Part shown: one piece after another, positions 55,411 through 57,637 of the stretch
Layout: each line of letters opens with the position of its first letter
Position numbering within the stretch: position 1 is the first letter of the stretch
Assembly: GCA_963666215.2 (NCBI GenBank)
Contig: CAXWPL010000001.1
Coordinates: 672,001 to 736,000, forward strand
Reading direction: 5' to 3'
DNA: 64,000 bases
Source of the DNA: Acidobacteriota bacterium
GTDB taxonomy: Bacteria; Acidobacteriota; UBA890; WLXD01
Program-made: the position numbers and the translations under genes
Notes under the pieces: generated by a model
Databases searched by the model: none
What the model was told of the DNA's origin: nothing
The model's input: the letters and a program-made list of their open reading frames with translations, nothing else

Positions 55411-56040
55411 CTACTGCAGGAAGACGCAGTCTTCCTTGGAAGGCGACACGCCGGCGTCATTGAACGCGCTGACGCGGAAGCAGTGCTCCGTTTTCAGGGC
55501 CAGCTTGCCGAACCTTTGCCTGCGGGTATTGGCTGGCACGATTGTTACTCTCGTCAGCGACGGGCTGGCAATCCGGAACCCGGTTTCCCCGTCCACGTTC
55601 GACCAGCTCACGCGCACGGTTCTGCGGTTCTTGGTCCGCCGCACGGTCACGCGTCGCGGCGTTTCCGGAGCCCCGACGATGTCTTTGCCGAGCTGACGTA
55701 TTTTCAGGTCTCCACCGCTGGCCACCTTGATCCTCCCCACTCGCGGTGACCCTGTTGCGTTCTCTTCGAGGACGAAATCGAAGTCACCGTCGCCCGACTG
55801 CTTGCCACCCTGTGGCTTGATCCAGTCGGCCTTCGACGTGGGTTTCCATCCACAGGCGGGGGCATTCACATCCACCGCCGCATTGAAGGTCCCCCCTGTG
55901 CTCCCAGCACAAGGTTCGAGTTCATGTTCACGTCATAGAAACACGGAGCGGTAATCAGGATCGCCCCCGGTGCTCGATGCTGCGTGTCCGTTAGGTAGCC
56001 TATCGACGGTAGAGCGACGACGGCCAGGGTAGCCGCCACC
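55411..56040 (-). CDS. Exported BACON + fibronectin type III protein; frameshift in the C6 run at 55891-55896; start uncertain
   Basis: CGW..TSKADWI...ENATGSPRVGRI (BACON); VSW...ETGFRI...FRVSAFNDAGVS (FN3). Confidence 0.6.
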
Positions 56041-56238
56041 CTCTTGACCGATCTGACTGCTAGCGTGCTACGATCGCCAGCGTCGGTCGCAGCGCGCTCC
56101 GAGTGTTCCGCGGCCTACAGCTACCTTCGTGTACCGGCGATGCCGGGGCACGACGGCTACCGGCCGGCGGGCGGCGTCGGAAGCCGGGCGAGGTTGGGTC
56201 CTCGCTGACCTGAATTGGCCCGGAAAGGAGGTGGTCTA

Positions 56239-56283
56239 GTGATATCGAATTTATGTGGCTTAGCGGAGGTGGCGGCCCTGTAG
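56239..56283 (+). CDS. 14-aa small ORF MISNLCGLAEVAAL
   Basis: AAAGGAGGTG SD immediately upstream of GTG; ends in TAG. Confidence 0.45.
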   Translation: MISNLCGLAEVAAL

Positions 56284-56420
56284 GGGACTCTCCGCGCTCC
56301 GTGCGGGCGCTCGCGCGCCTGACACGGTGAGAGCGTCAGTGACGCTTGGTTCTAAGGTGCCCCGTAGTACTCAGTGAGTGCTCGATGATCGGGGAACCCA
56401 CCGCCACCGAAGCAAGTTCG

Positions 56421-56468
56421 GGCCCCGGCGCGCGACTGTTAGATGTCGCCGCCGGGGCCTTATCTGTT
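56421..56468 (+). terminator. Intrinsic terminator-like hairpin
   Basis: ggccccggcg...cgccggggcc 10-bp stem followed by ttatctgtt. Confidence 0.65.
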
Positions 56469-56569
56469 CAGGGCCGCGGCTAGTGGGCTGCGCCTCCTTC
56501 CGCTGGGCGACGCTCTGAAGGTCGCGGCCAGCAACGCGAGAGCGGCAACGTAGAGTCACGGGCAACGAG

Positions 56570-57637
56570 ATGCGTGAGTCCCCAGACTTGATAGCCCCGA
56601 TCACCCCGATCAACCGGATCGCCATTGGCGAGATCCGGGCAGCCGCTCAGCGGTTGGACGGGCGCGTACTGCGCACGCCCCTGCTGCGGTTGCCGGCAGA
56701 TACCGACGAGAGCGGAGCCGAGATCTGGCTCAAGCTCGAGAACCTACAGCCAATCGGCTCGTTCAAGCTCCGCGGTGCCGGCAACGCCATGCTGCTCGCC
56801 GGCAGCGACCGGCTCGCGGCTGGAGTGTGGACCGCGAGCGCCGGCAACATGGCACAAGGCGTGGCGTGGAATGCGCGCGAGATGGGGATCGCGTGCACGG
56901 TCGTCGTGCCGGACTACGCGCCGCGGAACAAGCTCGACGCCATCGAGCGGCTCGGAGGGGTGATTCGAAAGGCTCCATTCGATGATTGGTGGCGGATCTT
57001 GGTCGAGCATCGAGCGCCTCCCGAGTGGGGGCTCGAGGGATTGTTTGTCCACCCAGTCTCGGACCGGGCGGTGATCGCCGGCAACGGGACGATTGGCCTC
57101 GAGATTCTCGAGGATCTGCAGGATGTCGACGCCGTAGTCGTGCCCTACGGCGGCGGTGGTCTGAGCTGCGGCATTGCGTCGGCGATCAGGGGCTCAGGAT
57201 CCGCGGCCCGGATCTTCGCGGCCGAGGTCGACACCGCCGCTCCACTGGCGGCGTCGCTGGCCGCTGGGGAGCCGCGCCAGATCGACCACAAGGGCAGCTT
57301 CGTCGATGGCATCGGTGGCAAGAGCGTACTGCCGGAGATGTGGCCGCTCGCCAGCACGCTCTTGAGTGGCTCGATTGTCTGCGGCCTGGACGAGGTGCGC
57401 GGCGCGGTGAGGCGGCTTGTTGAACGCTGCCGGGTCGTCGCGGAGGGCGCCGGGGCAACGTCGGTGGCCGCTGCTCATCGACTCGCGTCGGCGTGCCGGC
57501 CGACGGGTTTGGTCGAGCTCGGCCACGAGAGCCGTTCCGCAGAGGGATGGGTCGCTCCCCAACGTCTTGTCTGCGTTGTTTCGGGAGGCAACATCGATAC
57601 GGCGCGACTGGCCGAGATCCTCGGCGAATCGCGGTGA
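56570..57637 (+). CDS. Threonine/serine dehydratase family PLP enzyme (fold II)
   Basis: KLENLQPIGSFKLRG, SAGNMAQG, PYGGGGL, SGGNID. Confidence 0.92.
   Translation: MRESPDLIAPITPINRIAIGEIRAAAQRLDGRVLRTPLLRLPADTDESGAEIWLKLENLQPIGSFKLRGAGNAMLLAGSDRLAAGVWTASAGNMAQGVAWNAREMGIACTVVVPDYAPRNKLDAIERLGGVIRKAPFDDWWRILVEHRAPPEWGLEGLFVHPVSDRAVIAGNGTIGLEILEDLQDVDAVVVPYGGGGLSCGIASAIRGSGSAARIFAAEVDTAAPLAASLAAGEPRQIDHKGSFVDGIGGKSVLPEMWPLASTLLSGSIVCGLDEVRGAVRRLVERCRVVAEGAGATSVAAAHRLASACRPTGLVELGHESRSAEGWVAPQRLVCVVSGGNIDTARLAEILGESR

Follow-up and report, generated by a model that had tools for sequence, protein, structure and literature searches.

The window analysed here is a 64,000-nt stretch of an Acidobacteriota genome (assembly GCA_963666215.2, contig CAXWPL010000001.1, positions 672,001 to 736,000 of the forward strand). 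At 56081-56468 on its plus strand lies a real, stand-alone, expressed gene for a structured small RNA, or mini-mRNA, which has one copy in its own genome by homology search. A long Shine-Dalgarno (SD) sequence, SD1, precedes a short open reading frame (ORF), and a second SD-like box, SD2, lies near the end of that frame. An earlier note, made from the letters alone, had listed an extended -10, several stems, an SD, the ORF, a second GGAGGTGG, a CTCCGC and a terminator hairpin; all are in place. Its picture of a discrete RNA with stems, a mini-ORF and two boxes complementary to the anti-SD is supported, and the RNA is conserved; covariation, a frame open in 35 of 35 homologs and RNA contigs take these features beyond chance. 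The gene is flanked by a minus-strand frame ending at 55411 and by a plus-strand frame at 56570-57637 that resembles a pyridoxal phosphate (PLP)-dependent dehydratase.

The promoter-like site (56044-56074, plus strand) consists of TTGACC at 56044-56049, a 19-nt spacer and the extended -10 TGCTACGAT at 56066-56074, which predicts a start near 56081. One relative (L005) carries a similar TGCTAGCAT at the equivalent relative promoter position. The terminator-like hairpin (56420-56468, plus strand) has a GC-rich stem, GGGCCCCGGCG ... CCGCCGGGGCC, at 56420-56459, followed by the T-rich TTATCTGTT; homologs have textbook terminators at the equivalent position. A consensus scan called neither the promoter, whose 19-nt spacer lies outside the 16-18 nt that the scan needs, nor the terminator.

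Metatranscriptome contigs from four runs in two studies cover 56090-56412, which sets the minimum extent of the transcript. The contigs are 315, 312, 284 and twice 151 nt long and match the window at 100% identity with no differing letter. Individual cover spans 56090-56404, 56101-56412, 56101-56384 and 56120-56412, with starts between 56090 and 56120. No contig in these runs covers 55900-56089 or 56413-56700, so the RNA covers the region and not its flanks. Such contigs give neither strand nor exact ends, and DNA contamination is possible; nevertheless, a discrete, abundant small transcript would be expected to produce this pattern. The contigs show an RNA of at least 323 nt, and the span between promoter and terminator predicts one of about 390 nt; the ends, strand and translation of the RNA are ones that we infer. 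Contigs from both studies stop at 56404-56412, past the 3' strand of a long-range helix (helix B, below) and before the terminator; either cover falls off there or the 3' end has been processed.

Ribosomal pairing, mini-frame and fold

SD1 (56222-56239, plus strand) reads GGAAAGGAGGTGGTCTAG and contains AAAGGAGGTG. It is complementary to the 3' end of the organism's own 16S rRNA, whose gene ends ...CTGGATCACCTCCTTTCT. All 18 bases pair (15 Watson-Crick and three G-U, with a longest Watson-Crick run of 11 nt), and the final SD1 base is the G of the GTG start. The predicted duplex has an energy of -25.7 kcal/mol, versus -9.2 for the 6-nt SD AGGAGG. Across 35 homologs, assumed to share the 16S tail, 454 of the 455 cells of the 13-nt SD1 core are paired, 47 of them as G-U. 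Variation in the core is limited to A/G opposite U and C/U opposite G, and the positions opposite C or A are invariant except for one U-to-C in one sequence. Such wobble-only variation is what pairing in trans with an unchanging partner leaves behind; judged from this alignment, selection maintains the pairing between SD1 and the 16S tail.

A 12-nt complement of the 16S tail occurs at six sites in the genome: an rRNA gene, three places that read as coding sequence, one without a nearby start, and SD1. SD1 is the only one of the six with a start codon at SD spacing. A second site in the genome, on another contig (L190, G000:C4:998678-998689 and flanks), holds a 16-nt complement of the tail, AAAAAGGAGGTGATCC; it lies in AT-richer sequence, has no start codon at SD spacing and carries CTCCTCC about 100 nt downstream, and may be another SD/anti-SD RNA.

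The mini-ORF (56239-56283, plus strand) comprises GTG, 13 further codons and TAG, and would encode V/M-ISNLCGLAEVAAL. Among the 35 homologs the start is GTG (one TTG-GTG) 7-8 nt past GGAGG, and the frame is always open. Its length is 14 codons in 34 of them and 15 in the other, where a 3-nt insertion preserves the frame; TAG ends it in 24 and TAA in 11. The end is always ...GAG-GUG-GCN-NNN-NNN-UAR with the stop within a hairpin loop. The earlier note had proposed to check the conservation of an SD-start-EVAA-stop layout; SD, start, frame and stop are retained in all 35.

Elsewhere in the phylum, in other classes, the promoter lies near SD1, an AUG 5-14 nt away serves as start, and the ORF has 11, 14, 18 or 19 codons, but it always runs in frame into GAG-GUG-NNN-NNN-NNN-UAR. 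The 18- and 19-codon frames are those of loci L175 (genome G123) and L173 (G061), respectively. L173 reaches 19 codons because about 21 nt, GAGGTG included, are present twice; the SD-like box can thus duplicate within the ORF.

SD2 (56265-56275, plus strand; GGAGGTGG at 56265-56272) overlaps the 5' strand of helix B. Its GAGGUGG is invariant except for AAG in two of the 35 homologs, and its predicted duplex with the 16S tail has an energy of -14.6 kcal/mol. In all 42 homologs found with covariance models, GAGGUGG is followed by exactly three sense codons and then UAR in the hairpin loop; UGA never occurs. When this stop is in the A site, 5-6 nt separate the end of the SD2 box from the P-site codon downstream, a distance typical of an SD and its start codon.

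The only peptide motif kept across phyla, E-V-A, is always written GAG GUG GCN, with GAG and GUG never replaced by synonymous codons, so the constraint there acts on the RNA and not on the amino acids. The earlier note had heard an echo of an ssrA-type degron in this C-terminus; that idea fails on the same fixed nucleotides and on the presence of a true tmRNA elsewhere in the genome. From the comparison of homologs, the peptide as a whole appears loosely constrained.

Covariation was assessed on an alignment of 71 distinct homologs that was fitted to the model and hence favours its structure. Modelled pairs are paired in 92.7% of cases versus 86.2% in shuffles, and none of 500 shuffles attains the observed values. 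Both sides change at 16 of the 23 modelled pairs, and sliding the partner columns by 1-3 lowers pairing to 44-65%.

Three stems on the plus strand are supported. Hairpin H1 (56186-56207) pairs GCGAGG with CCTCGC (56188-56193/56200-56205) around the loop TTGGGT, and seven of seven pairs change on both sides. The stop-codon hairpin (56276-56286), CCCT-GTA-GGGG, holds TAG at 56281-56283, and three of three stem pairs do so. Hairpin H3 (56360-56394) pairs CCCCG with CGGGG (56360-56364/56390-56394), with three of four pairs changing on both sides and 95.2% of cells paired.

Helix B (56268-56275/56401-56408, plus strand) joins GGUGGCGG (GGTGGCGG) inside the ORF to CCGCCACC 130 nt downstream. Pairing is kept in 96.5% of its cells; double-sided changes are seen at two pairs, and at five others only the 3' strand varies, giving G-U; the 5' strand is frozen. 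Helix B could covary throughout and its 5' strand does not; we infer that something further holds this strand fixed, the simplest candidate being its pairing to a terminating ribosome's anti-SD. The earlier note had paired GCGGAG of SD2 with the CTCCGC just after the stop; that pairing is possible, but the partner of SD2 family-wide is CCGCCACC at 56401-56408.

An anti-SD-like, CCUCC-like stretch (56288-56300, plus strand), CTCTCCGCGCTCC, can pair with SD1 (helix A) or with SD2. In relatives of the same family, helix A is a continuous 12-19 bp with compensatory changes (CUCAG/CUGAG, CUCGA/UCGAG, CUCGG/CCGAG). In the window itself its duplex energy is -24.6 kcal/mol with a z-score of only -0.7, and z-scores for the duplex of SD1 with the post-stop stretch are weak outside the window's own family. 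A further strand, ACCCA (56396-56400, plus strand), adjoins the 3' strand of helix B and is a possible pseudoknot partner of the H1 loop UGGGU; U-A/A-U exchanges are seen between the two, and support is mixed. Helix A and the H1-loop/ACCCA pairing both lay outside the model tested for covariation. Since helix A crosses helix B, the fold would be pseudoknotted or switching.

The remaining plus-strand features are less widely shared. The 5' domain (about 56081-56183) is specific to the class and not common to relatives in other classes, whose promoter lies about 15 nt before the SD; within it, direct reading of the letters gives a hairpin of TCGTGTACCGGC and GCCGGGGCACGA (56127-56138/56142-56153). 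A variable hairpin region (56301-56358) is an insertion relative to most homologs and corresponds to gaps in our alignments A1-A3. Two candidate structures were dropped: a tRNA-like 3' end formed by H3 and CCGCCACC, where ACCCA intervenes and no CCA-type end is conserved, and an anti-terminator pairing of the SD2 region with the 3' strand of the terminator, where locus L027 lacks the complementarity that the window shows.

Family distribution and known relatives

BLASTN against 61 relatives gave four convincing partial homologs, centred on the SD and ORF, the remaining short matches being GC-rich noise. A covariance model built from these four (R1) has a single match in each of 23 of the 26 genomes of the order, which are also the whole class, and matches all 12 class genomes of at least 90% completeness. 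Among 151 sampled genomes of the phylum, R1 matches 24, and a shorter sequence-only model of the SD-to-stop core (R2) matches 39. Within the reach of these models, the family is universal in the class but has a patchy distribution across the phylum.

One genome per species was also scanned with a pattern that left the frame free to contain stops; this gave more than 110 loci, of which 80 were examined; among the matches listed, R1 at E<=0.01 matches 72 of the 80. The layout is present in metagenome-assembled genome records labelled Acidobacteriota, Nitrospirota, Myxococcota, Binatia and others, labels that may include binning errors.

Flanking genes are not conserved among 116 loci. The commonest neighbours occur in only 10-12 loci each (greA-like upstream, 12; lipid-kinase-like downstream, 12; DNA-glycosylase-like downstream, 11), the largest neighbour cluster (57 loci) consists of spurious GC-rich reading frames, and at some homologous loci the downstream gene is convergent. 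The lack of conserved neighbours indicates an independent gene and not a leader. Beside the gene in the window, two minus-strand frames, 55866-56039 (57 amino acids, with a signal-peptide-like start) and 55411-55875 (154 amino acids), resemble a single split gene for a secreted protein; the split near 55866-55875 may reflect a genuine frameshift or an indel in the assembly.

The window has no Rfam hit at gathering thresholds. In E-value mode it gives chance-level hits only: mir-4523 on the terminator, CC2171 and DUF3800-XI. The closest described family is nevertheless RF02471, Ms_IGR-5, an Actinobacteria small RNA named after IGR-5 of Mycobacterium smegmatis and reportedly first found by Li and colleagues in 2013 in a pull-down with a foreign Hfq. 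RF02471 (cut-off 45 bits) has no match on the window at E<=10 and none in its genome at E<=1, so the RNA is not a formal member. It exceeds its cut-off in none of the 151 phylum genomes; loci of the same layout in other classes of the phylum score 43.8 and 42.5 bits, the best values, and 33.8 and 32.7 bits. Among the matches listed, 2 of 17 pattern-scan loci from other phyla pass the cut-off (L117, 49.1 bits; L106, 46.7 bits).

The order of parts is shared with the Ms_IGR-5 family consensus and with two aligned members. In that consensus an SD of the AAGGAGGUGGUCC type is followed by a short frame that closes with GAG-GUG-GCN-NNN-NNN-UAG, then by a 3' strand that complements GGUGGCNN and, immediately, by a terminator. 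The window RNA likewise has an extended SD, a frame ending GAGGUGGC-N7-UAR, a 3' complement of GGUGGCNN and a terminator. It differs in being about twice as long (about 390 nt): its 5' domain takes up about 140 nt, H1 precedes the SD, and hairpins are inserted; the RF02471 structure line in Rfam, for its part, shows the 3' strand of helix B as unpaired.

Three loci bridge the two models: L106 (R1 22.7 bits, E 0.0055; RF02471 46.7 bits), L071 (R1 30.5, RF02471 29.5 bits) and a locus in genome G134 (R1 45.1, RF02471 24.7 bits); L117 is unmatched by R1. Because these loci are matched by both, the window RNA appears to be a divergent branch of an Ms_IGR-5 superfamily. We read it as belonging to a cross-phylum family whose actinobacterial branch is Rfam's Ms_IGR-5. 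The earlier note had called the RNA uncharacterised and had named an Rfam hit as a test: the window itself indeed lacks one, but homologous loci reach or approach RF02471, and the design is known from a bench-studied mRNA, rreB (PMC5711450).

In published work, Ms_IGR-5 is a discrete, expressed small RNA in Streptomyces (PMC8079986, PMC8780764), ribosome footprints lie on its homologs in both M. abscessus and M. smegmatis (PMC4974804), the RNA is nicotinamide adenine dinucleotide (NAD)-capped and 'yet uncharacterized' (bioRxiv 10.1101/2021.12.14.472595), and it is annotated as ncMSMEG15794c (PMC10454040). In the literature searched, which covers few subscription journals, we found no description of Ms_IGR-5 relatives outside Actinobacteria or of the mini-ORF. 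The kind of element is already known, from Ms_IGR-5 in Rfam and rreB at the bench. Within the same literature, what appears to be unpublished is the occurrence of the layout in Acidobacteriota, Nitrospirota, Myxococcota, Binatia and others, the invariant GAGGUGG at a fixed distance from UAR, helix B, and the wobble-only variation of SD1.

A parallel in design comes from the rre small mRNAs (rreB of Bradyrhizobiaceae and rreR of Rhodobacterales; Hahn et al., RNA Biol 2017, PMC5711450). rreB is a 165-nt mRNA with a GTG-started 14-codon small ORF; bench work shows that it associates with 30S subunits, that its translation is weak, and that exchanging its start codon for a stop stabilises it. Like the window RNA, rre RNAs are stand-alone small mRNAs with their own promoter and terminator, their SD is partly buried in a hairpin and their genomic context is not conserved between lineages; in rreB, 16S complementarity likewise extends through the opening base of the GTG that begins a 14-codon frame ending in UAA/UAG.

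The rreB complement is a perfect 17 nt, and that of the window RNA is 18 nt with three G-U pairs and a longest Watson-Crick run of 11 nt. The rre definition asks for at least 16 nt of 16S complementarity ending in the first base of GTG, compared with 18 of 18 paired positions here, G-U pairs included. The rre literature is confined to Alphaproteobacteria, and the likeness seen here is one of design. We treat rre and CC2171 RNAs as functional analogues of the window RNA, not as shown homologs.

RF01867, the Caulobacter small RNA CC2171, is presumably the Caulobacterales analogue of rre. On the window it scores 15.1 bits (E 1.1, cut-off 75) over the SD only, the third-best match in the genome after two unrelated places. 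Shared with CC2171 are the GAAAGGAGGUGAUCC SD, its 7-nt distance to a G/AUG start, the small ORF and the terminator; in 15 CC2171-type loci read, the ORFs have 22-32 codons, often end in UGA and lack GAGGUGGC. RF01867 matches 16 of 101 Alphaproteobacteria genomes at E<=0.001, three of them over the cut-off. One genome labelled Alphaproteobacteria (G165) holds both a CC2171-like locus (L205, C14:229608-229810, 39.4 bits) and an R1-like one (L194, C23:165285-165444, 25.4 bits), so the two behave as separate families that can coexist. Many CC2171-type ORFs (loci L199, L201-L203, L205, L206, L209) conserve ACGGAGCAGCCTC a few codons before the stop (peptide ...TEQP...). Their GGAGCAGCC near the stop resembles the GGAGGUGGC / ACGGAGGTGGCAGCC box of the window family, which is a lead only and not evidence of homology.

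Of the housekeeping small RNAs, a standard transfer-messenger RNA (tmRNA; RF00023) has its only hit over cut-off on another contig (G000:C4:335655-336004, 180.5 bits). RF00013 (6S RNA) has no match in the genome, in a search that matches only 5 of 14 control genomes and is thus uninformative.

Interpretation and rival explanations

The best explanation, to which we give about an even chance of being right, is a ribosome-docking mini-mRNA whose translation remodels its own fold, with ribosome occupancy and turnover of the RNA as outputs and the peptide secondary. In the resting fold, the internal anti-SD-like stretch would partly mask SD1 through helix A, and SD2 would be locked in helix B. A 30S subunit would dock on SD1 through a 13-18 bp duplex with the 16S tail that ends on the first base of GUG, placing GUG in the P site.

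Translating the 14 codons would then unzip helix B and the stop-codon hairpin. With UAG in the A site, GAGGUGG would stand 5-6 nt 5' of the P-site codon, and because this is the spacing of an initiation SD, the terminating ribosome could re-pair with the RNA. Selection would act on ribosome occupancy, ribosome-driven refolding and ribosome-dependent RNA turnover, and less on the sequence of the peptide. The gene, its expression and conservation, three hairpins, helix B, the selection for 16S pairing and the conserved frame come from the present data, and the order of these events, the re-pairing of SD2 and the cellular role are our proposal. For analogues or homologs, others have demonstrated 30S binding, weak translation and start-codon-dependent decay of rreB, and ribosome footprints on Ms_IGR-5. 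Of the roles offered in the earlier note, a ribosome-engaging or translation-coupled RNA fits best, and simple ribosome sequestration is opposed by the overexpression of rreB without a change in growth (PMC5711450).

Several observations weigh against this explanation. R2 does not find the family in about three-quarters of the 151 sampled phylum genomes. The RNA contigs carry no strand or end information and stop short of the terminator, and the minus strand folds with a better z-score (-3.9) than the plus strand (-205.6 kcal/mol, z -2.6), although values like these give folding energy alone no power to pick the strand. Helix A is weak overall (mean z -0.73, with 16% of 99 sequences below -2), and the H1-loop/ACCCA pseudoknot has mismatched flanking pairs in many sequences. 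For rreB, PMC5711450 calls the function 'elusive', reports overexpression without an effect on growth and describes peptides conserved within clades. Finally, the share of synonymous changes in the mini-ORF, 35% versus 24% at random (uncorrected for transition bias), leaves room for selection on the peptide.

That last point bears on the strongest rival, a gene for a functional 14-residue peptide whose amount is merely tuned by the RNA structure and the over-long SD; we consider it possible, though clearly the less probable reading. A minimum spanning tree of 85 distinct ORFs contains 85 synonymous and 157 other single-base codon changes, so that 85 of 242 are synonymous, a modest excess that keeps the peptide hypothesis alive. 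The conserved frame, start and stop would fit it too, as would several close relatives that differ solely at third codon positions and, in PMC5711450, the conservation of the RreB and RreR peptides within clades. Yet the one stretch fixed across phyla, E-V-A, never uses synonymous codons for GAG and GUG; the other residues vary widely between lineages, and the length ranges from 11 to 19 codons. The same source describes synthetic RreB and RreR as unstructured, and their presumed overproduction as without phenotype.

Could the frame be a structural by-product of a non-translated regulatory RNA, acting by base pairing or as a decoy for a protein or the 16S tail? Strong conservation at the nucleotide level, the pseudoknotted fold, an internal anti-SD-like stretch that may mask SD1 and the reported pull-down of Ms_IGR-5 with a foreign Hfq all point that way. 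The behaviour of the frame makes this improbable: the start shifts between classes yet stays in frame with a fixed stop, and a 3-nt insertion preserves the frame. In 71 distinct ORFs from the 80 pattern-scan loci (among the matches listed), the frame itself has no stop, whereas the other two carry stops in 44 and 53 of the 71. Ribosome footprints on homologs, reported in PMC4974804, also argue for translation.

A leader or attenuator controlling the PLP-dependent dehydratase-like gene at 56570-57637 is very improbable. A short ORF, hairpins and a terminator do stand upstream of a gene on the same strand, but neighbours differ among the 116 loci and some downstream genes are convergent, as described above, the RNA contigs end before the downstream gene, and no single amino acid is over-represented in the peptide. 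A tmRNA-like or permuted tmRNA rescue RNA is scarcely credible: the size, the Ala-containing C-terminus, the pseudoknot-like pairings and the short frame with its stop in a hairpin loop recall tmRNA, but the window RNA lacks a tRNA-like domain and comes with an SD and start codon of its own, elements missing from the tmRNA tag frame. It gives no tmRNA-family Rfam hit, and ARAGORN finds no tRNA or tmRNA gene in the window; the earlier note had likewise remarked that the tmRNA acceptor ends are absent.

Returning to the ribosome-docking mini-mRNA, a bolder form of it can be stated, which we regard as doubtful. It would be an ancient cross-phylum RNA with two complements of the 16S tail that keep ribosomes at the start and the end of a mini-frame, the second re-pairing exactly when a UAR stop, that is, one of the two stop codons read by release factor 1 (RF1), is in the A site, and it would act as a sensor or buffer of translational status coupled to its own fold and decay. 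If so, the status sensed would be the level of free 30S subunits, RF1 termination or recycling. Ms_IGR-5 and the acidobacterial, nitrospirotal and myxococcal forms, perhaps with rre and CC2171, would then make up one class of ribosome-regulating RNA.

To our knowledge, very few small RNA genes are common to distant phyla, the well-known ones being tmRNA, 6S RNA, RNase P RNA and signal recognition particle (SRP) RNA. The present family keeps four features across phyla: a near-complete complement of the 16S tail, a mini-frame, an invariant SD-like box at a fixed distance from the stop, and a long-range helix. If the RNA acts on ribosomes, it would represent a new layer of translational control; if it does not, it would be a well-defined and widespread micro-gene.

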